64,000 nucleotides of DNA from Arcobacteraceae bacterium (GCA_048268245.1 JBLWVX010000003.1:32001-96000), one strand, 5' to 3'. Positions 17,079 to 32,070 are shown, numbered from the stretch's first letter. The notes: generated from the sequence alone by a model not told the origin. Numbers and translations are program-made.

Positions 17079-17299
17079 AGTTTTCCTTATTCTTGTATAT
17101 AAAGGCGATTATATCTAAAAAGAGTTTGTAGAGGCTTTAAAGAGTAGTTATGAAAGATATATAGCTAAAATACAATAATTTTGATGATAATAAATAATAA
17201 AGTTATAAAAGTTATTTATTTAATTGTAAATAATACTTTTATGATACTTTTAAGTAATACTTAAGAATATATGTGTAACAATTACAGTAACGACATATA

Positions 17300-17375
17300 T
17301 TAGTGATAGCCAAACTTATCGTGAGGTAGGGACGGAAAGCCACGGATCTTGATGAAGATAGCCGGGTTGCATTCT
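17300..17375 (+). ncRNA. c-di-GMP-I (GEMM) riboswitch aptamer
   Basis: G-CC-AAA-C, P2 cttatc/ggtagg with GUGA (GNRA) tetraloop, GACGGAAAGC, P3 with atctt/aagat tip, ATAGCCGGGTTGC. About 80 nt upstream of the pilin ATG. Confidence 0.9.
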
Positions 17376-17454: not shown

Positions 17455-17649
17455 ATGTTAGATTTCTTAAAAAGAAGATTAAAAAGTGAAAAAGGTGCAA
17501 TGGATAAAATTCTTGTAACTTTATTATTAGTTATTGTTGGTGTTGGAGCAGTTGTTGGTTTAAATACTTGGGTTGATGGTGAAAAAACAAAAGTTGAAAC
17601 AGCAGCTACAAATAAAATCACTGAAGTAACTGGTTCTACTTCTGAGTAG
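17455..17649 (+). CDS. Flp-like major pilin (non-canonical N-terminus)
   Basis: 64 aa; basic leader ending EKG, hydrophobic helix ILVTLLLVIVGVGAVVGL; AAGGAG RBS; first gene of the Tad locus. Confidence 0.85.
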   Translation: MLDFLKRRLKSEKGAMDKILVTLLLVIVGVGAVVGLNTWVDGEKTKVETAATNKITEVTGSTSE

Positions 17650-17685
17650 TATTAAGTTAAAAGGCTTATGCCTTTTACTTAATAC
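17649..17685 (+). terminator. Strong stem-loop between pilin and prepilin peptidase genes
   Basis: gtattaagt-t-aaaaggc-ttat-gcctttt-acttaatac, 16 bp with one bulge. Confidence 0.7.
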
Positions 17686-17699
17686 ATGAAAAGACAAAT

Positions 17700-18128
17700 G
17701 TGTTTACAATAATCTTTTATATATTTTCTACAGTTTTATCTTATACTGACTTCAAAAAATACTTAGTACCAAATAATATTTTACTTACTATGGCAATAAT
17801 GCTTTTAATATTTGGCTTTTTTGAATCGAAAATATATATAAGTTCTATTGTTTTATCTTTAGGTGTTCTTCTTTTTTTCATTATTCTTATGCTTATAAAT
17901 AGACAAATGATACTTGGTGGTGGAGATATAAAGTATATGATGCTTGTAGCACTATTTTTAGGACTAAAACCATTTGCTATTTTTTTGATAGTTACAGGTC
18001 TTCTTCAAAGCATAGTTTTATTATTTATGCAAAAAATAAGAAAAAGAAGAGTAGCTGCTATGGTACCAGTTATGTTTGTTTCTGTTATAATAGTAGATAT
18101 ATTAAATTATTTGAATATATTTTTGTAA
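17700..18128 (+). CDS. A24 prepilin peptidase, TadV/CpaA type (no methyltransferase domain)
   Basis: Catalytic Asp motifs YTDFKKYLVPN and GGGDIK; multiple TM helices; GTG start. Confidence 0.9.
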   Translation: MFTIIFYIFSTVLSYTDFKKYLVPNNILLTMAIMLLIFGFFESKIYISSIVLSLGVLLFFIILMLINRQMILGGGDIKYMMLVALFLGLKPFAIFLIVTGLLQSIVLLFMQKIRKRRVAAMVPVMFVSVIIVDILNYLNIFL

Positions 18129-18164
18129 AGAATATAATCTTCAAAGATAAGGTTAGGAAGAAAT

Positions 18165-19754
18165 ATGACATTAGATGATTTTAAAGATAAACTTGATTCA
18201 AATAAAGAGAATAGTATTTTAAATACGCAAATCCAAGAGGCTTTAGAACTATTTGCTGATCTTGCAAACCTAGATGATATTTCGTATTATAAGTATGAGT
18301 ATGAATATAATAATTTCTTTCATAAATTAACTATTGATAAAGATGGAAATAGACTTGAAGAAAAAAGTCATAATGAACAAAAATACAGAATAACATTGAG
18401 AAAAAATAAACTTGTATATGGATATATATCTATTAATAAGCGAATAAAATCAACTTCTATTGTAAAAAAAATTCTAAATAAACTAATAAAATATCTAGAT
18501 AAGCAAAAAGAATTAGAAAAAAAACTTTTAGGTTCTGATGTATCTTTTAATATATATTTATTTCATGATGATACTTTAGATATGTTTGCCCAAAATCTAA
18601 AAGGTGGACTAGAAGGTCTTTTTAATGTTGATGTAATTGTAGATAATTCAATTGAAAAACATATATCTTCTATTCGAAGTAAAGAGACTAAGCATATAAT
18701 TGTTTATTTAATTGATGATGAAAGAAATATCAAGAAGTATGAATCTGTAATTAAGTCATTAAATGAATTAATAATAGTTTTAGGTCCAAATGACCATAAA
18801 ATATCTATGTATTGTGGGAAACTAGGAATTCAGAACTATATTTCTATAAATGAATTTAAAGCAGAAACAATAAAAGAAATAATTCTAAATACAAGAAATG
18901 AACTTCTAAATAAAAATAAATATGGGAATAAAATTATAGCTTTAAGTGGTATTTCAGGAGGTATAGGAACTACTACTATTGGTATGAATATGTCTGATTT
19001 ACTATCACAAAATTTACCTGATAAGAATATTTTATATATTGATTTATCAACTACAAAAGCTGTTAGCAATCTATTTTTACAAAAAAATCCACTTCCTAAT
19101 AAAACTATTGTTGATTTGATTAATACAAGTGAATTTCACTTGGAAAATAATCTTCAAAATGGTTTATGTAAAGTTCGTGAAAACTTTTATTGTATTACAG
19201 GAATTCAAAAACATATAGATAAAGAGTACATAGAAAAAGATGTATTTATTAGTAAACTTTTAGAGTATGTATCAAATTCAAGTGATTATTTTAATTTTAT
19301 AATTATAGATTTAGGTTTAGCAGATGCTTCAAATCTAAAGACAACTATATATGATATTGTAAATGAAATCTGGCTTTTAACAGAAATGAATCTTCCTCAT
19401 ATTTCAAAAGTAAAAACATTTTATTCTTTAATGAAAAGAGCAGGGTTAAAGGAGAAAATATCTTTTATTGTAAACAGATATGATTCTCAAAATGCAATTT
19501 CAGTGAATGATGTAACTTCAATTTTAAATATGACAAGTGGGGACAAAATACAATTTGATAATTATAAAATCCCAAATGATTATAAAACTTTAGGTAAATG
19601 TTGGAATTACTGTGAGTTAGCAAGTGTAAGTGATAAAGACTCACTATTTATAGAGAAACTTGAAGATATTTTGAAGAAAAAAGAGTTTTATCAAAGTGAA
19701 GATAAAAAAAGAAAAGAAGGATTCTTTTCATCTTTATTTAAAAAGAGTAAATAA
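18165..19754 (+). CDS. TadZ/CpaE-like protein with extra N-terminal domain
   Basis: C-terminal MinD/ParA fold (IIALSGISGGIGTTT, LYIDL, FIIIDLG, IVNRYD, IPND); central degenerate receiver-like region; directly upstream of the ATPase. Confidence 0.82.
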   Translation: MTLDDFKDKLDSNKENSILNTQIQEALELFADLANLDDISYYKYEYEYNNFFHKLTIDKDGNRLEEKSHNEQKYRITLRKNKLVYGYISINKRIKSTSIVKKILNKLIKYLDKQKELEKKLLGSDVSFNIYLFHDDTLDMFAQNLKGGLEGLFNVDVIVDNSIEKHISSIRSKETKHIIVYLIDDERNIKKYESVIKSLNELIIVLGPNDHKISMYCGKLGIQNYISINEFKAETIKEIILNTRNELLNKNKYGNKIIALSGISGGIGTTTIGMNMSDLLSQNLPDKNILYIDLSTTKAVSNLFLQKNPLPNKTIVDLINTSEFHLENNLQNGLCKVRENFYCITGIQKHIDKEYIEKDVFISKLLEYVSNSSDYFNFIIIDLGLADASNLKTTIYDIVNEIWLLTEMNLPHISKVKTFYSLMKRAGLKEKISFIVNRYDSQNAISVNDVTSILNMTSGDKIQFDNYKIPNDYKTLGKCWNYCELASVSDKDSLFIEKLEDILKKKEFYQSEDKKRKEGFFSSLFKKSK

Positions 19755-21355
19755 TGAGAAGTTTAAGAGATTTAATTGAAGATCAAGAAAAAAATAGCAT
19801 TAGTTTAGATGATAATGTTGTTGAAGAATCTACAGAAGAAGACTCTATTCTAAAAGAGACAAAAGAAAAAATCACTAAGATAAAAAAACAAGCAGTAAAT
19901 TCTTTATTACAGTTTCCTGATATTTATACAAACAAAGAGTTATATGATTTAGCTTTACGAATAAATGATAGTTTTATGATGAACTTAAAATCTGATCAGA
20001 AGATTACAGAAGAGAATCTTGAAGAAGTATTACCTGATTATATTCAATCTTATAACAAAGAAACTAGAACTTTATCTAAAGAGTATTTAGAAGATATAAA
20101 ACAAATGATTATAAATAATATTGTAGGTTATGGTCATATATCTACAATATTTGACATTGCTAAAGATGGATTAAATGATGTAATTATAAATACAAAAGAT
20201 TATGTAGATATTATTTATAAAGGTAAAACAGAACAAACCCCTTTTACTTTTAGAAGTGAAGAAGAGCTTAGAAAAATTATAGATAAAATGCTTGCTGAAA
20301 ACAATAGAAAAATTGATGAAGCACATCCTATTATTTCAAGTAAATTAAATGATGGTTCAAGGGTAGAAGTTCAAATCCCACCAATTGCTGCAAACGGTGG
20401 AAGTTGTGTGACAATTAGAAAATTCAATGAAATACCACTTTTATTAGAAATGCTAATTGATGCAGGTCAGATGGATATGAAAATGGCATATTTTCTAGTA
20501 AAAGTTTCAAAAGGAAAATGTAATATTATTGTATCTGGTGGTACATCAAGTGGTAAAACAACTTTCTTAAATGCAATGACAAGGTTTGTTGATGGAAATG
20601 AACAACTTATGGTTATTGAAGATACAAAAGAGATGCAACCTCAAATGCCTTGCCATTCAATTAGGTCTTATGAATCAAGAATGGCAAACGAAGAGGGTAA
20701 AGGTGCTATTCCTTTAGAGTATCTTTTAAGATCAGCTCTAAGATCAAGTCCAAGAAGGATTATTGTAGGTGAGTGTAGAGGACCTGAGATTGTAACAATG
20801 TTAAATGCTATGAATACAGGTCACCCAGGTTCTATGACAACTGTTCATGCAGATAGTACAAAAGAAGCTCTTGTTAGAATTGAAAATATGTACTTAGAAG
20901 CCAGACCAAGTGCTAATATTAATTTTATTAGAACTCAAATTGTTTCAGCAGTTGATTTAATCATTCAGTTAGTTAGATTTCCAGATGGTACTAGAAAATT
21001 AGTTGCTATTTCAGAGATTGAGCGAAGAATGGAAGATAATGGAGTTGTATCTTTAAATAATATCTTTGAATTTAAAAGAGATACAAGTGATCTTAAAAAA
21101 ACAAAAGGAGAGTTTCAAACTCTATCAACTCCTACTAGAACAATAGATCAAATGAATATGTTTGGTGTAGATATTGATAAAAGAGTGTTTGATCCAAATT
21201 TTGAGATGCCTAAATCAATGCTTATCGAAGCACTTGAAACAGATTTACCATCAGTTATGTGTGGTTGGAAGGATGAGTTCCTGAAAGTGTTTATTGAAAG
21301 AGATCCTCAGCTTTTTCATAAATGGCCACATTTTTTAAAGATGAAAGAAGAGTAA
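19754..21355 (+). CDS. tadA: Tad pilus ATPase TadA/CpaF
   Basis: DGSRV, TIRKF, Walker A GGTSSGKTT, IEDT.E, IIVGECRG.E, AMNTGHPGSMTTVHA. Confidence 0.95.
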   Translation: MRSLRDLIEDQEKNSISLDDNVVEESTEEDSILKETKEKITKIKKQAVNSLLQFPDIYTNKELYDLALRINDSFMMNLKSDQKITEENLEEVLPDYIQSYNKETRTLSKEYLEDIKQMIINNIVGYGHISTIFDIAKDGLNDVIINTKDYVDIIYKGKTEQTPFTFRSEEELRKIIDKMLAENNRKIDEAHPIISSKLNDGSRVEVQIPPIAANGGSCVTIRKFNEIPLLLEMLIDAGQMDMKMAYFLVKVSKGKCNIIVSGGTSSGKTTFLNAMTRFVDGNEQLMVIEDTKEMQPQMPCHSIRSYESRMANEEGKGAIPLEYLLRSALRSSPRRIIVGECRGPEIVTMLNAMNTGHPGSMTTVHADSTKEALVRIENMYLEARPSANINFIRTQIVSAVDLIIQLVRFPDGTRKLVAISEIERRMEDNGVVSLNNIFEFKRDTSDLKKTKGEFQTLSTPTRTIDQMNMFGVDIDKRVFDPNFEMPKSMLIEALETDLPSVMCGWKDEFLKVFIERDPQLFHKWPHFLKMKEE

Positions 21356-21358
21356 ATT

Positions 21359-22285
21359 ATGAGTAATTTAGTTCTATTTTTTATCATAGTAATTCCTATA
21401 CTATTTATAAGTTTTGCTTTTTATTTATACTCATTTTATGTGAAAATGAATCAGCAAAAAGTGATAATAAATACTTTAGTAAATACAAATAGTAAAATCC
21501 TAGATAATAATAGAAATGATAATGTATTCGAAGATGATACAAATTTTTTAAGAAAGAAACTTAGATTTGCAGGCTTCTCTACTCAAGGTGCTGAGTATGT
21601 TTTTTTACTTATTTGTATTGGTTTTGGACTTTTAACAAGCTTTTTTATTTTTTTAATAGCAAGTTCTAAGATCATATTTGTATGTACATTTTTTATATTT
21701 ATGGGCTTTCCTTATTTGGTTTTAGTAAATATTATAAAAGCTAGACAAGAAGAGTTTAACTTTGCATTAAAAGAGATTATTGATAAAGTTACTAGTATGA
21801 TGAGAAGTGGTGTAGGTTTTGAGCAAGCTTTAAAAAAATCAATCCTTACTTCAAAATCAAAACTTGCACAAAAAGTTCTAGGTATTTATATAAATGAAAA
21901 ATCAGTTATAGGTGAAGATAAATGTTTTGAGAAGATGTTTAAACTTATTGAGTCTAAAGAACTTAGAATTTTTTATCTTACAATTTCAATTGGTAGAAAA
22001 TCAGGTGGTAAGTTTTCAAATACTTTAGAAAAACTAAGAAAAACACTACATGACCAAGGGGAAATAAAACAAGAAATTACATCTTCAACAAAAGAGATAA
22101 AAGTGGGTACTTATATGATTATAGGGCTTATTATTTTTACATATATTATGATGAATAGTGCATTAAATGATTCTTTAAATGCTCACTTTTTTGGTAGTGA
22201 TACAGGTAAAATCCAAATGTTTTTTATTATTGTTTGGATTTCTTTTGGACTATTTGTAAATAGCTTATTAACAAAGATAAAATGA
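21359..22285 (+). CDS. tadB: Tad inner-membrane platform protein TadB
   Basis: T2SSF-like features (MRSGVGFEQAL, GGKFS..L); follows tadA. Confidence 0.87.
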   Translation: MSNLVLFFIIVIPILFISFAFYLYSFYVKMNQQKVIINTLVNTNSKILDNNRNDNVFEDDTNFLRKKLRFAGFSTQGAEYVFLLICIGFGLLTSFFIFLIASSKIIFVCTFFIFMGFPYLVLVNIIKARQEEFNFALKEIIDKVTSMMRSGVGFEQALKKSILTSKSKLAQKVLGIYINEKSVIGEDKCFEKMFKLIESKELRIFYLTISIGRKSGGKFSNTLEKLRKTLHDQGEIKQEITSSTKEIKVGTYMIIGLIIFTYIMMNSALNDSLNAHFFGSDTGKIQMFFIIVWISFGLFVNSLLTKIK

Positions 22286-23127
22286 TGGATAAAACACTTA
22301 TTGTATTTATACTAGCACCAATGTTAATAGCAGTAGCCATAATTGCAACAGTGCTAATACTTCAGAGAAAGAAACAGCAAAGAAATATTGTACTTCTTTC
22401 AAAGTTAGATAATAAAGCAATTATAGAAGAGCAAAAAAAAGGCGAAAATAAAAGTAATGATAGTTTGAATATGCAATTAATTCAAGCAGGAATTACTTAT
22501 AAAGAGTATACAGAAGCAAGACTTCTTTTTGCTTTGATTGGAATAATTATAATGGGAGTTCTACCATTTTTCTTCTCTTTTATAGTTGGAGTAATTAGTG
22601 TAATTGTAGGTATTTTATGTATTGCATTTGGAGGAAAGTTTTATTTATCAATTGCAAAGGCAGAGAGAATTGAAAAAATTGATAAAGATTTAGGGATTTT
22701 TCTTGATTTAGTAAATGTAATTCTTGAAGCAGGAGGAAGTTTAAAAAATGCCTTTTTTGAAGTTTCTAAAAGAGCCCATGGAATTATTGATGAAGAGTTA
22801 CTAAAAGAAATCTCTATTTTAGAGTACGAAATGACAAATTACTCTACAAAAGTAGCCTATGAAAATCTTAAAAATAGGGTCGATAGTAGACAACTTGATA
22901 AAATAGTGGATTTTTTGATACTTAGTGAAGAGACAGGTATTGGAGTAAAAAACATTTTTACAATGCAATCAGATGAAATGAGAAAAGAAAAGTTCTATAA
23001 AATAAAAGGGAAGGTTAATACTTTAAATATGTATTTGATGCTGATTATTTTCCTTTTTGTTTTACCAGCATTTGGAGCATTTATTGTTTTCCCTATTATG
23101 GGTGGAACACTAACAATTGGAATATAA
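22282..23127 (+). CDS. tadC: Tad inner-membrane platform protein TadC
   Basis: FLDLV...LEAG.SL..A, SEETG, LFVLPA. Confidence 0.88.
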   Translation: MMDKTLIVFILAPMLIAVAIIATVLILQRKKQQRNIVLLSKLDNKAIIEEQKKGENKSNDSLNMQLIQAGITYKEYTEARLLFALIGIIIMGVLPFFFSFIVGVISVIVGILCIAFGGKFYLSIAKAERIEKIDKDLGIFLDLVNVILEAGGSLKNAFFEVSKRAHGIIDEELLKEISILEYEMTNYSTKVAYENLKNRVDSRQLDKIVDFLILSEETGIGVKNIFTMQSDEMRKEKFYKIKGKVNTLNMYLMLIIFLFVLPAFGAFIVFPIMGGTLTIGI

Positions 23128-23145
23128 ATTTAATAAGGATTTTAC

Positions 23146-24351
23146 ATGCAAGCTAACAAACAAATAATTATAATACTAATACTAGCCTCGCTACTATTTT
23201 CAGCACTTGGGGCTGCTTTTTATTTTTTTAAAAAGAATAAACAAGCCCAAAAGAGTAATAATGAACTTGTCACAATTTATATTGCAAAAGCTGATATAAA
23301 AAAAGGAACATTAATTACTGTAGATCAAATGGCCCAAACTAAAATAGCAAAACAATTCTTATTAAATAAACCATTGATGAAAAAAGAGATTATTGGAAAA
23401 TATACTAGTGAAAAAATCTTTAAAAATGAGATGTTCTTAAAACAAAAACTATCAACACAAATTGAGAAAGAAAGAGCTAAAGTTCTTGATTTTACTAGCA
23501 GTAGTTACAACATGAAGTTTGATATGTTTGATAACCCCAATTATACTTTAGTTCAAGGGGATTTTATAAATATCATATCTGTTCTTCCAAAGGGAAAACC
23601 TGATAATAAAGGTAAATATTCAGATTTTGATGTTCAATATATAGCAAATAATATTAAAGTTTTAGGATTTATTAAAGATGGTGTAAATGAGTCTTCAAGT
23701 ATTACAAAAGAAAAAATTAAAAAAGTAATAAAGAAAAAAGTTGTAGAAGAAATAGTAAATATAAAAGCAAATGAAATGATACTTGATATAGATCCAAATG
23801 TTTTGATTTCACTTATTAAAGATTATAATAAAGGAAATCAATTATGGATGGTAAAAACTAAAGAGTCTATTCAGATTAAACCACTTGATGAAATGACAAA
23901 AGAAGAAACAAAAGAGTTTAAAAAAGAAATAAAAGAACCTTTATCAAAAGAAAATAAAAAAGTAAAAAAAGTATATAAGCCAAAGGTTTATAAGTACCAA
24001 TGGTATAAATCAAAGGTTAATACTATTACTAAAAGTGCAGTAATTGATTATACAAATGATAAAGGTGATAGTAAAACTAAAAAAAGAAGTGTAGAAATAA
24101 AAGTTGATTCACAAAGGATATGTAACTCTATAAAAGATAAGTTTATTATAGGAACATCTGCAAGGTTTTATATAAGAAATGAGCCAACAACTAGATCAAG
24201 TAAAAAAAGTATCTTAGAAAAAAATACAATTATTCCTTATGTTGAAAAATTAGACACTTGGTATAGGACTTGTGATGGACAGTTTGTAAGTTCAAAAGTT
24301 GCAAATGAGATTTCATATTCAAATGCAGTAAAAAAAGCAGGTAAAAGATGA
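23146..24351 (+). CDS. RcpC/CpaB-like protein (TM-SAF-RcpC) with C-terminal SH3-like domain
   Basis: N-terminal TM; SAF motif IYIAKADIKKGTLIT; LVQGDFINII, NIKVLG; tail YIRNEPTTRS...WYRT.DG.FVSS. Confidence 0.8.
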   Translation: MQANKQIIIILILASLLFSALGAAFYFFKKNKQAQKSNNELVTIYIAKADIKKGTLITVDQMAQTKIAKQFLLNKPLMKKEIIGKYTSEKIFKNEMFLKQKLSTQIEKERAKVLDFTSSSYNMKFDMFDNPNYTLVQGDFINIISVLPKGKPDNKGKYSDFDVQYIANNIKVLGFIKDGVNESSSITKEKIKKVIKKKVVEEIVNIKANEMILDIDPNVLISLIKDYNKGNQLWMVKTKESIQIKPLDEMTKEETKEFKKEIKEPLSKENKKVKKVYKPKVYKYQWYKSKVNTITKSAVIDYTNDKGDSKTKKRSVEIKVDSQRICNSIKDKFIIGTSARFYIRNEPTTRSSKKSILEKNTIIPYVEKLDTWYRTCDGQFVSSKVANEISYSNAVKKAGKR

Positions 24352-24791
24352 AAAATCAAACAGTAAAAAATAAACCTAATTTAAAAGATGCTGTAGTAGA
24401 GCAAATCATTTTATGGATTGTTATATTTATATCTTTTGTAAGTATTTTATTTTTTATTATTGATTATTCAAATGCACTAAAAGCTAGTGAAAATGCAGAT
24501 TCAATTGCTAATTACACAGCAAGAATGGTAGCACTAAATGAATCGGAAAGTGATATTGCTGATGGTATTAATAGAATAAAAGGTGATTATGTACAAGCAG
24601 TTACAACAGCTGGTATTTCTTGTACAGAAGATACAACTGATGCAAGTAGACAAGTAATAGTAAATGTATCTGGAACACTACCAAATAATATTATTCTAAC
24701 AGGAAGTAATAATATAAACTCAAAAGCAGTAGTTTATAATGAAAGTAGTGAATATAAAAAAGAGTGTAGTATAGCACTTAGCTTTAACTAG
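24348..24791 (+). CDS. TadE/F-like minor pilin
   Basis: Basic leader, hydrophobic helix, then A...A..TARMVAL; two Cys; inside the Tad operon. Confidence 0.7.
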   Translation: MKNQTVKNKPNLKDAVVEQIILWIVIFISFVSILFFIIDYSNALKASENADSIANYTARMVALNESESDIADGINRIKGDYVQAVTTAGISCTEDTTDASRQVIVNVSGTLPNNIILTGSNNINSKAVVYNESSEYKKECSIALSFN

Positions 24792-24800
24792 GAGAGAGTT

Positions 24801-26285
24801 ATGAAAGTAGTATTAAAAAGTTTATTTATTTTATGTATATTTTTAAGTATAGGAAATACAAATGAGCTTATAAGTAAAAATTTACATGATAAAAACATAT
24901 CCGTAAGCAAAGGTTCATTTAAAGTCTTTGAGTTTAAAAAGATGATTAAGAATATAAAAGTAAGTGATGAGTCTATGATAGATGTAGACTTTTTAGAAAA
25001 TAGTGAAAAGCCTTTGCAGGCTATAAAAGTGTTTACTAAAAAACTTGGAAATGGAAATATCCTAGTTACTTTCTATGACTCAAGTTCATTACATATAAAT
25101 ATAAATATCACTGAAAATTTAAATACTATAGTTGAAGTTGCAAATATAATAAGTCCTAAGTTAAAAGTAAAACAAACTAATGGAAAAGTAATCTTAAGTG
25201 GAAGTGTAAAGAATCAAAAACAAAAAGATAAGATTTTAGACTTATTTAAAAAAGCAGGTGTGAATCTAGAGACTGATTTAGTTGATTTAGCTACACTTGA
25301 AAATCCAGATAAGATGGTAAGAATCAAGCTTTATGCAGTTGAAGTAAATAATGATAAAGGGCTTACAATAAAGAATAATTGGTTTAGTTCAGGTAAGAAC
25401 TATATTCAAAATATTAATGATGAAGGACTTTATTATAATACTCCTTTGGATTATTCTGGAAGTACTCAAGAATATAGCGATGCAAATAATCAAAGAAATA
25501 TTTTAGTACATGATGCAATTGATAATCTTATGAAAGATGCAGTATCTCTAACAGGTGGATTAACTGGTGCTGCTAATGTATTAGGTAAATATTTTAATGT
25601 AGGAGTTACTTTAAACTACTTATCTTCAAAAGGTGTAGCTGAGGTTTTAGATGAAACAACACTTTTAACATTAGAAAACCAAGAAGCAGATTTTTTAGCA
25701 GGTGGAACTTTAAATATAAGAACACAAACTACAACTTCTCAAGGTGTACCATCAACTGAATTAAAAGAGATAAAGTATGGTTTACAACTTAATATAAAAG
25801 CTAAAAATATTGTAGATGATAAGTTTATAAAACTAAATATTGTTACAAAATCAAGTAGTGCAGATTTTGCAAATACAGTAGATGGAATCCCAAATATTAC
25901 AGAGAAATCAATCACTACAAATGTAGTAGTAGCAAATAAATCTACTATTGTTTTAGGTGGTTTAATAAATAGAAAAAATGCAAGTGATATAGAAAAAATA
26001 CCATTACTTGGGGATATTCCAGTATTAGGGTTTCTATTTACAAGTAAAGCTTTTAAAGAAGGGAAAAGTGAGCTAGTGTTTTTTATTACACCTGAAATAG
26101 TTGATCCAAAAGCAAACAACCAACAGCAAGAGTTCTTACAAAAAACAACATTTACAAAAGCCATAGATGAAAAATTTGAAAATGATAAAAAAGAAGTAGA
26201 GAAAGAAAAAAATAAAAGTTTTAATAAAAAAGAAGACTCACAAAGCTTACATGAGCAAAGAGTAAAAGAGATTTTAGGATATTAA
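24801..26285 (+). CDS. rcpA: Tad secretin RcpA/CpaC
   Basis: Signal peptide, Ig-like N domain, BON-like segment (VILSGSV), A.FLAGG, YGLQL, IPLLGDIPVLGFLF, ELVFFITP. Confidence 0.92.
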   Translation: MKVVLKSLFILCIFLSIGNTNELISKNLHDKNISVSKGSFKVFEFKKMIKNIKVSDESMIDVDFLENSEKPLQAIKVFTKKLGNGNILVTFYDSSSLHININITENLNTIVEVANIISPKLKVKQTNGKVILSGSVKNQKQKDKILDLFKKAGVNLETDLVDLATLENPDKMVRIKLYAVEVNNDKGLTIKNNWFSSGKNYIQNINDEGLYYNTPLDYSGSTQEYSDANNQRNILVHDAIDNLMKDAVSLTGGLTGAANVLGKYFNVGVTLNYLSSKGVAEVLDETTLLTLENQEADFLAGGTLNIRTQTTTSQGVPSTELKEIKYGLQLNIKAKNIVDDKFIKLNIVTKSSSADFANTVDGIPNITEKSITTNVVVANKSTIVLGGLINRKNASDIEKIPLLGDIPVLGFLFTSKAFKEGKSELVFFITPEIVDPKANNQQQEFLQKTTFTKAIDEKFENDKKEVEKEKNKSFNKKEDSQSLHEQRVKEILGY

Positions 26286-26294
26286 AAAAAGAGC

Positions 26295-27434
<1,140 letters not shown>

Positions 27435-27459
27435 TTAAAATTTCGCAATTATATCTAAA

Positions 27460-27942
27460 TTATGTTGATAGTTTTTCTTCTAGTTGTTTTTTTAAACTTT
27501 CATTCTCTTCTTTTAGAGTTTTGATTTTTAAAAGTAGTTCTTTTCTCTCATTTGCAGGTTCAATTGCTTTAGATATTGATATAATAATATTTCTAATATC
27601 AATTGGTTTGATTATGTAAGAGGTGATTCCAAGTTCTATTGCTTGTTTTAAGTAGCTTATATCTTGATGGGCAGTTGTGATTAAAACAGGAACATCTTTA
27701 TTGATTTTTTTTATTTCTTCAATCATTTCTAAGCCATCCATGTTAGGCATGGAAAGGTCTGTAACTATAATATCAATTTCTTCTTGATTCTCTATGAACT
27801 TTTCTAAACCATCCTTCCCATCAACTGCAGGGATAATCTTGGCATTTACAAGTTCTAATGTTACTATAGTATTTTGCTGTATAGCATTATCATCTTCTAC
27901 GTATAAAACTGTTATGTCTTTTAACATTTGTTCATTAATCAT
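27460..27942 (-). CDS. Response regulator: receiver domain plus short coiled coil, no DNA-binding domain
   Basis: VEDD, D.SMP.MDG, TAH, KP motifs; leucine-zipper-like tail. Confidence 0.92.
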   Translation of the reverse strand: MINEQMLKDITVLYVEDDNAIQQNTIVTLELVNAKIIPAVDGKDGLEKFIENQEEIDIIVTDLSMPNMDGLEMIEEIKKINKDVPVLITTAHQDISYLKQAIELGITSYIIKPIDIRNIIISISKAIEPANERKELLLKIKTLKEENESLKKQLEEKLST

Positions 27943-28066
27943 TATATTTAGGCCTCTTTTGATAACTTATAGTATCTATAGTTGGATAAAAAAGTTATTA
28001 AATCTTGCTTTTATTAATATTATTTAATTTTAGATATAATGATAAATATTTACACAAAGGTCATAA

Positions 28067-29467
28067 ATGAAATTACTTTTAGTTTTTATTCTAAGTATTA
28101 GTTTTTTATACTCAAAAGAGCTTAAATCAATCACACTAGAAGAAGCAATTCAAATAGCTTTAGAAAACAATAAAAGAAATAAAGTGTCTAAACTAGCTTT
28201 AGAAGTTGCAAATGCACAATATAACCAAGCATTAAGTGCAAACTATCCAACTATAAATGCAATGTTGGTTGGTATTAGAAAAGATGAAAATCCTATTTAT
28301 CAGCAAAGAGGTGAATTTACATTACCAGATGGATTAAAAAATTTGTTAGAAGGTTTAGCTAGTGCACAGGCAGGTCAGCAAGTAACTATTGACCCTACAA
28401 TTCCAGCAAATATGAATACAACAAGTTACGGTAGAGATATAGTAAAAGGTTCAATTAATGTACAATACCCAGTTTATACAGGTGGAAAAATCTCAGCTAT
28501 CATTGAGCAAGCTAAACTAAACAAACAAATTGCTTTTAATGCTATGAAAAGAGAAGAAGAGAGTGTTGTATTTGATACTAAGAAATACTTTTATGGATAT
28601 GTATTAACAAATGAGTTACATAAAATTGCTAAAGACTCTTATGAGAGAATGCAGTTTATTTCAGATTTGACTAAAAAGTTTTATGAAAGTGGTGAGTCTT
28701 TAACTGTTAAAAAAACTGATTATTTATCAGTTCAAGTTACAGTTACATTAATAGAATCAATTGTTTCAAAACTTGAAGCAAACAAAAATCTTGTAAAATC
28801 AGCTTTAATTAACTCTATGGGTTTATCATGGGATAGTGATATAAATATCTCATATACAAATAGATTAGTTCCTCCAAATTACACTCTTGCAAAATTAGTT
28901 GAAAAAGCATACTCTTCAAATAAAGATATAAATGAAATAGATATAGCTTTAAAGGTTACAAAAGAGCAAATAAAAGAGAAAAAAGCCGGACATTATCCTA
29001 CTTTAGCTTTTATGGGTGAAGTTTCAAGAACTTATAACTCATATGAGTATGGTTTTTTAAATGAAGACCAAAGAAATAGATGGAATATAGGTTTTGCAGC
29101 AAACTTACCACTATTTGATGGGTTTAAAACTACAAGTGAAGTAGAAGAAAAAATTGCTGAAAAAAAGAAAATGTATCTAATAAGAGATATGTTAAAAGAT
29201 GCAGTAGCTATGCAAGTTAAAAATGAGTTAACAAATGCACTGATTGGTTTTAAACAAATCAAAACACTTAAAAAAGCAAAAGAACTTGCTAAAGATAGTA
29301 GAGAATTAAATATAAGAGCTTATCAAATTGAAGCAGTTGAGCCAAAAGATGTAGTTCAAGCTCAATATATTGAAGCTTATGTAAAAGCAGATTATTTAAA
29401 ATATGTACATGATTATTTAATCTCATTAGCAAAAATTGATAAACTAGTTGGAAAAGAGTTAAAATAA
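28067..29467 (+). CDS. TolC-family outer-membrane protein
   Basis: Signal peptide; ITLEEAIQIALENN; two OEP repeats (YPT..., PVYTGG / PLFDG); L.KLVG end. Confidence 0.92.
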   Translation: MKLLLVFILSISFLYSKELKSITLEEAIQIALENNKRNKVSKLALEVANAQYNQALSANYPTINAMLVGIRKDENPIYQQRGEFTLPDGLKNLLEGLASAQAGQQVTIDPTIPANMNTTSYGRDIVKGSINVQYPVYTGGKISAIIEQAKLNKQIAFNAMKREEESVVFDTKKYFYGYVLTNELHKIAKDSYERMQFISDLTKKFYESGESLTVKKTDYLSVQVTVTLIESIVSKLEANKNLVKSALINSMGLSWDSDINISYTNRLVPPNYTLAKLVEKAYSSNKDINEIDIALKVTKEQIKEKKAGHYPTLAFMGEVSRTYNSYEYGFLNEDQRNRWNIGFAANLPLFDGFKTTSEVEEKIAEKKKMYLIRDMLKDAVAMQVKNELTNALIGFKQIKTLKKAKELAKDSRELNIRAYQIEAVEPKDVVQAQYIEAYVKADYLKYVHDYLISLAKIDKLVGKELK

Positions 29468-29468
29468 T

Positions 29469-31106
29469 ATGGAAACAAATTACAGTAAAAATAAGCTATT
29501 TAAAAAAGTATATGTTCTTCTTTTTTTAGGAATCACATTGATTACTATTATTTTTGCTGCAATTGGAGTGTCTTTACAGAAAAAAGCAGTTTTAGAACTT
29601 ATGCAGTCAGAAGCTAAAAGTTTAGCTCAATCTATTACTTTTGTAATCTCTAAATCTTTGTTAATTGATGATGATTCATCAATTATTGATTTTAATAAAC
29701 AATACATAAAAAAAGCAGATAAAGTTAAAAATATAATAATTTCAAAATCAAATGGAAAAGATTACTTTATAATTAGAAAAGAGTCTTGGGAACATAGACA
29801 AAATATTAGTGAAACCTTTACAAATATGCAAAAGAATATACCTACAAACTCTATGATTTATTCAGCATTTTTAAATGAAGAAGTTTTTCATTATGTATAT
29901 CCTATGCAAATATCAGGAATTACATGGGGTTGGCTTCATATTAGTTTAGATTTAAAGAAATATTATGAAAAGTTAGAACATCTTTATGCTCAATATTTAG
30001 TACTGTTTTTATCTTTTACATTTTTAGCTTTTGTAATTTCTTTTTATATAGCTAGAACTTTTGTTAGACCTATTGTAGAACTTAATAAAACAGTATCTCA
30101 AGTAAGCTCTGATAATTTAGATGTTATAAAAGTTGATAATGTTAGTAATGATGAGGTAGGAGAGTTAACGAAAGCTTTTAACTCGATGATTTCACAGTTA
30201 AGTATCTCTCAAAAAAGTCTTAAAAAATACCAAGCAGATTTAGAAAAAAGAGTACAAGAAAGAACAGCTGATTTAGAAAAAGCAAACAAAAGTTTAAATG
30301 AAAAATCAGAACAACTAGAAGAGTTAAATAGAAACCTTGATACAAAAGTAAAAAAAGAGATTGAGAAAAGAAAAGAGCAAGAAGAAATGCTTTTACAGCA
30401 ATCAAGACTTGCTGCAATGGGTGAAATGGTAGGAAATATTGCTCACCAATGGAGACAACCTTTAAATGCTTTAGGAATTATTATTCAAAATATTGATTTA
30501 TCTTATAAAATAGGTAAATTAAATGAAGAGTTTATGAAAAAATCAATTGATGAGTCTTTAGATTTAACTACTATGATGTCAAAAACTATTGATGATTTTA
30601 GAAATTTCTTTATACCAAATAAGAAAAAAGAGAATTTTTTACTTCATGAGAGTTTAAATAGCTCATTAGAGTTAATTGGTTCTACATTTAAAAACTATAA
30701 TATTAGTGTGAAAAGAGATATTGACAAAGGCTTAGAGGTTTTTGGTTTTCCAAATGAGTTTGCTCAAGCTTTACTAAATATTTTGTCAAATGCAAAAGAT
30801 GCTTTAATCGAAAAAAGAGTTGCTAAACCTGAAGTTTGTGTGAAGCTAAAAAAATATGAAGACATAGGAAAAATATTTATAAGTGATAATGCTGGTGGAA
30901 TAGATGATGAAGTAATGCTTAAAATATTTGAACCATATTTCACTACAAAAGAGCAAGGGAAAGGTACAGGAATTGGTCTTTATATGTCAAAAATGATTAT
31001 TGAACAAAATATGAAAGGTAAAATTTATGCTAGAAATATAGATAATGGTGTAAGTTTTATAATTGAAATACCTTTAAAACAAAAAGATGAAGGAAAAACT
31101 ATTTAA
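29469..31106 (+). CDS. Sensor histidine kinase (2 TM, periplasmic sensor, HAMP, HisKA, HATPase)
   Basis: DEVGEL..AFNSM (HAMP), IAHQWRQPL, N.LSNA.DA, DNAGGI, FEPYFTTK, GTGIGL. Confidence 0.95.
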   Translation: METNYSKNKLFKKVYVLLFLGITLITIIFAAIGVSLQKKAVLELMQSEAKSLAQSITFVISKSLLIDDDSSIIDFNKQYIKKADKVKNIIISKSNGKDYFIIRKESWEHRQNISETFTNMQKNIPTNSMIYSAFLNEEVFHYVYPMQISGITWGWLHISLDLKKYYEKLEHLYAQYLVLFLSFTFLAFVISFYIARTFVRPIVELNKTVSQVSSDNLDVIKVDNVSNDEVGELTKAFNSMISQLSISQKSLKKYQADLEKRVQERTADLEKANKSLNEKSEQLEELNRNLDTKVKKEIEKRKEQEEMLLQQSRLAAMGEMVGNIAHQWRQPLNALGIIIQNIDLSYKIGKLNEEFMKKSIDESLDLTTMMSKTIDDFRNFFIPNKKKENFLLHESLNSSLELIGSTFKNYNISVKRDIDKGLEVFGFPNEFAQALLNILSNAKDALIEKRVAKPEVCVKLKKYEDIGKIFISDNAGGIDDEVMLKIFEPYFTTKEQGKGTGIGLYMSKMIIEQNMKGKIYARNIDNGVSFIIEIPLKQKDEGKTI

Positions 31107-32070
31107 TTAGTTTTACTGTATCTTTTGTTTTAGTTCCTATAATTTTTAGTTGAAATTCAAATTGATCATAATCACCATTAATTTTTTTATATGTTGTACT
31201 TGGATTTGCTAAAAGTTCAACTTCTATGAATTTATTAATCAATAGATTATCAGCTGTACTTCCACACTCAAATAGTGCCATGTGCATTCTCGCACCTGTT
31301 AAATCGTAAGAGTTTTCTAAATTTTTAAAAGATTGACTTATTTGTTTTGGGTCATTATTTTGTTCCTTTGTTAAAGAATCAACCATAGGAACACAAAAGT
31401 CATTATATATATCTGTATCTAAAACCGACTGATCATTTCTTATAAAACCATCATCAGTATAAAAATATTTTATATCATTTTTAAAGTGTGACCAATTTGA
31501 ATTCCCTGATGCGGTACAAGCATTTCCTAAATCAACTCCATAAAATTCATCATAATCTGTATCTGTATATCCTCTATGACCACTTAAATTAAATGTTATT
31601 ATATTGCCTTTAAATAAATGTGAATTATCACATCCATTTATTCCAAATGGTGATAAGTCTGATGTCTCTGTTAAGTCTGCTATTATTGCTACAGAGCTTG
31701 TACTTAAATCAAAGCTTGCTAAATCAAGGAATTTATACCAAAAAGTTTCATGTGTGTAATTTGGAAGTGAAACTGTTACTGTATAAGGGTCAGATATAAA
31801 ATCCCAAGTATATGTGATTTCATCTTTTATTTGTGCACCTAATGGAGTTTGAGCTAGTATATCATTTGCAATAGTTTCAGCATTAGTTGTATCCATATCA
31901 ACATCAATATAGTACTTTGCAGCACTTAATGCAGCATTATCTGTTAAAGCTTTAAGCTTATAATATTTATTTCTAGCTTCAATATCATCTAGTATAGTCG
32001 CACCTATAATTATAAGGGTTGCAAAAAGAAAAATCCCTAACATAATTTGATCAATAAATGCTTTTTTCAT
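31099..32070 (-). CDS. TadG-like pilus protein (candidate tip adhesin)
   Basis: MKKA-F leader, hydrophobic helix, L..LTDNAALSAA (Tad domain motif), C-terminal domain with four Cys. Confidence 0.75.
   Translation of the reverse strand: MKKAFIDQIMLGIFLFATLIIIGATILDDIEARNKYYKLKALTDNAALSAAKYYIDVDMDTTNAETIANDILAQTPLGAQIKDEITYTWDFISDPYTVTVSLPNYTHETFWYKFLDLASFDLSTSSVAIIADLTETSDLSPFGINGCDNSHLFKGNIITFNLSGHRGYTDTDYDEFYGVDLGNACTASGNSNWSHFKNDIKYFYTDDGFIRNDQSVLDTDIYNDFCVPMVDSLTKEQNNDPKQISQSFKNLENSYDLTGARMHMALFECGSTADNLLINKFIEVELLANPSTTYKKINGDYDQFEFQLKIIGTKTKDTVKLIK

Follow-up and report, generated by a model that had tools for sequence, protein, structure and literature searches.

The window analyzed here, a stretch of 64,000 nucleotides from an Arcobacteraceae bacterium (GCA_048268245.1, JBLWVX010000003.1:32001-96000), contains a Tad pilus locus in which three candidate filament subunits, i.e., a major pilin, a TadE-like protein and a TadG-like protein, share an N-terminal motif distinct from that of Flp pilins. 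Judged from its predicted components, which comprise a CpaF-type ATPase, a secretin, a short A24 peptidase and the platform proteins TadB and TadC, the machinery is that of a bacterial Tad (type IVc) system. We propose, with a probability of about 0.66, that the filament subunits of this locus use a class III signal peptide of a non-Flp, archaeal-like type, with an acidic residue at position +3 of the mature protein.

As translated, the three proteins begin with ...KSEKG↓AMDKILV (major pilin), ...NLKDA↓VVEQIILW (TadE-like) and MKKA↓FIDQIML (TadG-like), where the arrow marks the presumed cut. They have in common the code [K/R]-x-[G/A]↓x-hydrophobic-[D/E]-[K/Q]-Ile, followed by a hydrophobic helix, and in all of them a small residue is located three positions before the acid, Lys or Gln comes immediately after it, and Ile occupies +5. 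An earlier note on this DNA had described this motif, with the acid at +3 and Ile at +5, and the N-termini were confirmed as it had written them. A scan for the motif was carried out in the six frames of the 2.68-Mb genome, where 15,828 segments between stop codons had a length of 40 amino acids or more. The pattern was [GA]xx[DE][KQ][ILVM]3; of the 17 residues behind it, 16 or more had to be hydrophobic or small, and a start codon was demanded no more than 40 codons upstream. Exactly three matches were obtained, which corresponded to the pilin, the TadE-like and the TadG-like proteins; since the pattern had been built from these three sequences, the informative part of the result is that the genome holds no other match. 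The same genome also encodes four canonical pilin or pseudopilin open reading frames (ORFs; one on contig C21, two on C24 and one on C50) of the form [A/G]↓F-[S/T]-x-x-E, with Glu at +5, as well as a second, longer A24 peptidase within a 265-amino-acid open frame on contig C16, which indicates that the Glu+5 rule is kept in this organism for another system.

When the genome scan was relaxed, one orphan pilin paralogue was added (contig C2, L002:1489-1683, plus strand; KG↓AIENILV, 40% identical). This gene sits outside any Tad locus and is followed by an ORF of 450 amino acids, which ends in an HGCVRL motif and which we take to be L,D-transpeptidase-like; a similar-pilin cluster is found elsewhere (P0221).

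With regard to conservation, 373 pilin matches were retrieved at E<=0.01, and all 120 homologues listed among them read G-A-M-D-K. Similarly, the 58 TadE-like homologues without exception read [A/G]-x-x-[D/E]-Q followed by Ile (57 with Ala and one with Gly; 42 with Asp and 16 with Glu). In the 36 TadG-like homologues, the residue three positions before the aligned site was Ala in 35 and Gly in one, and the site itself was Asp in 34, Glu in one and Ser in one, the last being the only exception to an [A/G]-x-x-[D/E]-Q motif that is kept in 35 of 36. The orthologue comparison which had been suggested as a check on the +3 D/E was thus favorable in each of the three families. Database matches were named as Poseidonibacter, Arcobacter and Aliarcobacter, and the region has a low GC content (about 27%).

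When 1.84 billion representative proteins were searched with the profile (E<=0.001, clusters at 50% identity), the pilin family was recovered in only 124 clusters. In 88 of these, an acid is found third after a small residue, with 25 of the 88 being gene calls that start at an internal Met; a further 11 clusters match neither this pattern nor the acid-less one considered below, and approximately five of them show the acid by eye. Within a sample of 401 genomes of the class, the pilin family was present in three of 23 other Arcobacteraceae and in five of 34 genomes of a Sulfurimonas-type family (f15), and one more match, in family f11, was doubtful (E=0.004, in a 290-amino-acid frame). This is, in summary, a small but widespread pilin family, found in Arcobacteraceae and Sulfurimonas-type genomes.

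At least 18 related loci were confirmed in a search with a narrower alignment, and in the 14 full Arcobacteraceae loci the pilin gene was invariably found beside the A24 peptidase gene and a complete Tad machinery. The loci of the Sulfurimonas-type sister lineage (L048, L069, L086, L087 and L089) comprise the same machine and gene set, with a homologous pilin and TadE-like protein and the KG↓ context, and with the pilin gene placed after that of the secretin. In this lineage, the pilin reads KG↓MSGVLVALLL and the TadE-like protein ...G↓[L/M/F][P/A/G]QIMA, both of which fall one residue short of their Arcobacteraceae counterparts and carry no acid. In line with the earlier proposal that the subunits changed together, major and minor subunits co-varied: among the loci that have both genes, the pilin and the TadE-like protein alike carry the acid in all 14 from Arcobacteraceae, and neither does so in any of the five from f15; this co-variation is clean, but the two lineages amount to one independent contrast. 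The no-acid pilin profile, run against another sample of the phylum (401 genomes), recovered the same lineages and no third independent one; in addition, family f18 gave one weak match (8.5e-4), which lay within a frame of 559 amino acids. As both subunits of the Sulfurimonas-type lineage are devoid of it, the acid would not be essential to this type of machine, and the putative +3 acid is a lineage-specific feature.

The cut most likely falls after [K/R]-x-[G/A] and would be made by the adjacent A24 peptidase, as judged from the residue that each register places at -1. If the acid is at +3, each of the 118 pilins that could be anchored within the first 50 residues has Gly at this place, and all 58 TadE-like and all 36 TadG-like proteins have Ala or Gly; when the three families are counted together, the residue is Gly or Ala in each of 214 proteins. 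By contrast, a cut two residues earlier, which would restore the acid to +5 and which the earlier note had itself named as the case that would overturn its register, would leave Glu, Gln or Asp at -1 in each of the 118 anchored pilins, Lys in the 58 TadE-like proteins and Lys or Arg in the 36 TadG-like proteins, and would shrink the TadG-like leader to two residues, 'MK'. The acid at +3 is therefore the better reading, being the only register in which every family receives a peptidase-compatible -1 residue, and it is further favored by the interchange of Gly and Ala among orthologues at this one position (MKRG↓FVD, MKRA↓LVD, MKKA↓FID). As a homology anchor, the Gly of the family profile aligns with that of archaeal-type pilins (KG↓ISPILATLLL), and the deposited Iho670 chain begins with VSPVIATLLL, i.e., right after that Gly. 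Cleavage at a different bond, whether the earlier one or, in the pilin, KGA↓MDK with the acid at +2, is in our judgment unlikely. In support of the latter, KG↓MSG and KG↓ISP show a gap in the MAFFT and hhalign alignments where the Arcobacteraceae have Ala, a cut after this Ala would align Met with that of KG↓MSG in the sister lineage, and Ala is acceptable at -1, where both minor pilins use it; however, the spacing common to the three families would then be lost, and the conserved Lys of the pilin would shift from -2 to -3. A predicted complex of the A24 peptidase and the prepilin, each entered as an alignment, obtained a score of 0.02 (mark 0.32) and weighs neither way.

As to what the pilin is related to, no family in Pfam or NCBIfam matched the window pilin, and neither PF04964 (Flp) nor PF07811 (TadE) matched any window protein at E<=1, just as it had been foreseen that standard Flp models may miss these proteins. 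PF04964 was also absent from all 201 Campylobacterales genomes, with the Caulobacter control being matched, and PF07790 (Pilin_N) gave no match at E<=1 for the window pilin, with distant family members at 0.0017 to 0.055, below the cut-off. Among solved structures in the PDB, the best match of the Arcobacteraceae pilin profile was Iho670 (E=0.0067), and the Caulobacter Tad pilin chain was not found at E<=10. The weakest matches of the family were archaeal-type pilins (KG↓ISPILATLLL...), two of them named 'flagellin-like protein' by JGI, and this archaeal-type set in turn matched solved archaeal pili (8fk7, 6e-11; Iho670, 5kyh, 1.3e-6). In hhalign comparisons, the value was 96.9% against the archaeal-type set (E=1.9e-10 over 56 columns, with Gly on Gly, Asp opposite Ser and Lys opposite Pro) versus 0.8% against canonical Flp, where the leader alone was aligned, figures that are indicative but uncalibrated because the archaeal set consists of the family's own matches and the Flp set of two pilins (from Rhizobium and Ralstonia plasmid Tad loci). 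In such canonical plasmid Tad loci, the pilins read G↓ATAIEYG and G↓VALTEY, and the TadE-type protein G↓VAAVEF. The nearest named clusters in the ESM Atlas, Flp1_like (0.86) and Class_IIIsignal (0.85), were both below 0.9 and serve as leads only. Taken at the level of profiles, the predicted pilin falls outside the Flp family by its defining tests and resembles archaeal-type pilin N-termini.

The earlier note had interpreted the three subunits as having co-evolved a different charge register. On this reading, they would be Flp, TadE and TadG proteins in which the G↓xxxxE[Y/F] motif had lost two residues, the charge moving from +5 to +3, with the peptidase and filament packing co-adapted. This interpretation can draw on the Tad-type machinery that surrounds the subunits and on the G↓xxxxE of canonical Tad subunits, relative to which the local spacing is two residues shorter. 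Furthermore, some TadE-like relatives match PF13400 (12 of 33, best 0.0027) or PF07811 (two of 33) weakly and below cut-off; among 25 TadG-like members, none matched either model. It is nevertheless rather improbable, given the negligible, leader-only similarity to canonical Flp profiles, the lack of matches to PF04964 and to the Caulobacter Tad pilin, and the absence of Tyr6 and Gly7 of the Flp motif, whereas the alignment with archaeal-type pilins runs through and past the hydrophobic helix, including a ...TW... stretch; nor does a simple two-residue deletion explain a sister lineage devoid of any acid. Very improbable, in our view, is the possibility that these proteins are not processed filament subunits at all and that they represent small bitopic membrane proteins, whose N-termini are similar owing to membrane-insertion constraints alone. 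The lack of any family model that recognizes them and the unspecific outcome of the fold searches would be compatible with this idea, against which stand the association of the pilin gene with the A24 peptidase and the complete Tad set in all 14 full Arcobacteraceae loci, the invariant small residue at a fixed distance from the helix behind positively charged leaders of variable length, the uniqueness of the motif in the genome, and the profile similarity to solved archaeal pilins.

The proposal of an archaeal-like signal with the acid at +3 has to bear several points that weigh against it, to which the single contrast between lineages, the uncalibrated hhalign values and the alignment of the pilin Ala and Met described above also belong. 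The acid is not universal, as 25 of the 124 pilin clusters read G-x-[S/N/T]-[G/P] and have none. The conservation of D/E at +3, whose loss in orthologues had been put forward as grounds for giving up the motif, hence holds in close orthologues and breaks down at a distance, where about one-fifth of the clusters show G↓xS[G/P]. In addition to the TadG-like homologue with Ser, one further TadG-like orthologue, seen in a related locus, has Asn at the acid site. The TadZ-like and CpaB-like assignments fall below curated cut-offs; the position and length of both proteins are conserved across orthologous loci. Foldseek searches of the PDB with the models of the TadE-like and TadG-like proteins returned no match at E<=0.001, and in a wide VIA-align comparison the TadE-like model reached a best Z of 5.6, to unrelated folds, with the type IV pilin PilJ at a Z of 4.1 among many ties. 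Finally, the cut site, its cleavage and the filament itself are all deduced from sequence.

The features of the locus are compiled in Table 1. The two catalytic Asp residues of the A24 peptidase were invariant in 13 of 13 aligned orthologues, and the protein has no methyltransferase domain. When E-values were compared, Caulobacter CpaF (8.9e-70) was by a wide margin a better match to the assembly ATPase than the archaeal proteins GspE (7e-31) and FlaI (1.6e-30). The pilin gene ends 50 bases upstream of the A24 gene. Along the locus, the start of the TadE-like gene overlaps the stop of the CpaB-like gene by four bases (ATGA, 24348-24351), and the TadB/TadC (22282-22285) and TadZ/TadA (19754) pairs likewise overlap or abut, an arrangement that is consistent with translational coupling along a putative operon.

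Table 1. Predicted features of the Tad locus and its surroundings, with positions counted from the first nucleotide of the window (aa, amino acids).
Feature	Position	Strand	Assignment and remarks
c-di-GMP-I riboswitch aptamer (RF01051)	17299..17374	+	58.1 bits, gathering score 35, full-length model match; 80 bases before pilin ATG
Major pilin precursor, 64 aa	17455..17649	+	Leader MLDFLKRRLKSEKG; probable mature N-terminus AMDKILV..., ~50 aa mature, without globular domain
A24 prepilin peptidase, short TadV/CpaA-type, 142 aa	17700..18128	+	PF01478 2.7e-13; D17, D76 (GGGD)
TadZ/CpaE-like ParA/MinD-family ATPase	18165..19754	+	AAA_31 25.1 of 27 bits, MinD-type; below cut-off
CpaF/TadA-type assembly ATPase	19754..21355	+	PF00437 1e-44
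TadB-like platform protein, one T2SSF domain	21359..22285	+	PF00482 6.6e-8, above cut-off
TadC-like platform protein, one T2SSF domain	22282..23127	+	PF00482 5.6e-8, above cut-off
CpaB/RcpC-like periplasmic protein, SAF domain	23146..24351	+	TIGR03177 5.5e-6 (25.8 of 71 bits), SAF 0.0045; below cut-off
TadE-like minor pilin, 147 aa	24348..24791	+	...KDA↓VVEQIILW; no PF13400 or PF07811 match for window copy
RcpA/CpaC-type secretin with BON domain	24801..26285	+	PF00263 4.5e-40
TadG-like large minor pilin, 323 aa	31099..32070	-	MKKA↓FIDQIML; ~4.8 kb away from operon

In other genera of the Arcobacteraceae, the genes are arranged in the order pilin(s), peptidase, TadG-like, TadZ, TadA, TadB, TadC, CpaB, TadE-like and secretin. 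The detached TadG-like gene of the window, which the earlier note had tied to the locus by its motif, is linked to it by synteny as well, as it lies elsewhere between the peptidase and TadZ genes. In the locus of one metagenome-assembled genome (MAG; L055), the TadG-like gene comes right after the secretin gene in opposite orientation, a state between the usual order and that of the window. Between the secretin and TadG-like genes of the window lie four others (26295-31106), namely tgt and the genes of a stand-alone response regulator, a TolC-like protein of the outer membrane and a histidine kinase with a HAMP domain. As tgt also follows the secretin gene in genome G007 (L050), the insertion seems to consist of the two-component and TolC genes. 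In one of the Sulfurimonas-type loci, the slot between peptidase and TadZ is occupied by an ORF of 590 amino acids (L048:4950-6722) whose N-terminus is of the Sec type and which does not resemble the TadG-like protein.

TadG-like proteins of 784-813 amino acids were observed in Halarcobacter-type loci (L057:10639-13032, L064:10627-13011, L065:10897-13338) and in a Campylobacterota MAG (L068:2644-4998), compared with 323 amino acids in the window, and other relatives carry a C-terminal DUF4114 or RTX repeats. This size range suggests that a variable, adhesin-like tip module may be mounted on a constant pilin-like N-terminus. The AlphaFold2 model of the TadE-like protein (mean confidence, pLDDT, 80.8) consists of a long N-terminal helix and a four-stranded sheet, and that of the TadG-like protein (pLDDT 83.3) of an N-terminal helix (residues 2-56) and an alpha/beta domain, so that both minor proteins show, in these predicted structures, a pilin-like architecture in which a helix precedes a sheet-containing domain.

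The pilin gene is preceded by an aptamer of a cyclic di-GMP (c-di-GMP)-I riboswitch, which also scored 57.5 bits against the GGC variant RF03167 (gathering score 59). Among seven related loci, one has such a riboswitch before the pilin (L053:9811-9892), and a more sensitive Rfam search of L049, L050 and L051 retrieved nothing at E<=0.001, so the riboswitch is not a constant feature of the family. Metatranscriptome contigs from four libraries and at least three studies (oyster, salt marsh and estuary) span positions ~17307 to ~17604, i.e., the leader and the pilin ORF, and several of them have their first base at 17307-17310, where they adjoin adapter sequence. RNA contigs from relatives match 17310-17370 and the pilin ORF, with a different spacer in between. 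These data give a weak hint that the leader and the pilin are transcribed together; the contigs stop short of the downstream genes, where coverage gaps carry no weight, and they provide no expression level.

On the basis of the above, we envisage the following mechanism. The 142-amino-acid A24 aspartyl peptidase would cut after [K/R]-x-[G/A], giving rise to mature subunits that begin with x-hydrophobic-[D/E]-[K/Q]-Ile and that would contain a buried acid at +3 and lack the Glu5/Tyr6/Gly7 motif of Flp. The 50-amino-acid major pilin would polymerize into a filament through its hydrophobic helix, and the TadE-like and TadG-like proteins would enter the same helical core as minor pilins, probably as a tip or priming complex; owing to their identical N-terminal code, they could be processed by the same peptidase and accommodated by the same core. 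The acid probably takes over the task of Glu5 by neutralizing the N-terminal amine or Lys4, either in the hydrophobic core or during membrane extraction. Production of the pilin would be switched on or off by c-di-GMP through the riboswitch, and expression gated in this manner would fit a role in adhesion or biofilm formation.

Among the polar residues of bacterial type IV pilins, Glu5 has been described as the only invariant one, and Tyr6 as a hallmark of Tad pilins (PMC10710030). The Tad loci described here appear to break both rules, with an acid at +3 in one lineage and none in its sister. No paper was found on Tad pilins of Arcobacteraceae or Sulfurimonas, nor on bacterial Tad pilins without Glu5, in a literature search that left subscription journals outside its reach; a Tad cluster was noted in a Sulfurospirillum epibiont, and pilins are not discussed in the available sections of that report (PMC10470745). 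With the Flp, TadE and TadG models now in use, these subunits end up in annotations as hypothetical proteins, which is why Campylobacterota Tad loci seem to be pilin-less. The two lineages would constitute a natural experiment on the role of the N-terminal acid in peptidase recognition, membrane extraction or charge neutralization within the filament core.

Compared with the Tad/Flp system of Caulobacter (CpaA-F/PilA), the locus is alike in its CpaF-type ATPase, split TadB/TadC, short A24 peptidase, candidate CpaB-like protein and secretin, as well as in a major pilin of ~50 amino acids without a globular domain that is accompanied by TadE-like and TadG-like minor subunits. It differs in that Glu5 and Tyr6 are missing, that a presumed +3 acid is followed by Lys or Gln, and that Flp, TadE and Tad Pfam models remain below cut-off. 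With the type IVa and type II secretion system-type pilins of the same organism (A↓F-S/T-x-x-E, N_methyl-type), the subunits share a class III signal whose leader is basic and whose -1 residue is small, and the TadG-like MKKA↓F is the same up to +1; however, the acid of the Tad-like subunits stands two residues earlier, and the canonical set is presumably served by the longer A24 peptidase encoded on contig C16.

Regarding the archaeal type IV pilins (Iho670, PDB 5kyh/3j1r), the likeness extends to the [K/R]-G context of the cut, to the helix ...[IV]L[AV]TLLL[IV]VI[AG]V... with a subsequent ...TW..., and to the fact that Glu5 is not required. In contrast, the host is here bacterial, with a Tad machine that is driven by CpaF and includes a secretin, and the window pilin has a mature N-terminus that is one residue longer, Asp-Lys in place of the archaeal Ser-Pro, and no C-terminal Ig-like domain. 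Tad has been derived from archaeal Epd-like pili (Denise et al. 2019; PMC6668835), and our observations bear on this proposed archaeal origin. The Arcobacteraceae and Sulfurimonas-type loci might even be a branch of Tad in which ancestral pilins of the archaeal type have been retained, an idea that we advance tentatively and regard as doubtful. If it were true, the Flp motif (Glu5-Tyr6-Gly7) would have arisen after bacteria gained the machine, nature would have furnished proof that a machine driven by CpaF and equipped with a secretin can build filaments from subunits that lack Glu5, whether they have an acid at +3 or no acid, and these organisms would be a living intermediate between archaeal type IV pili and Flp.

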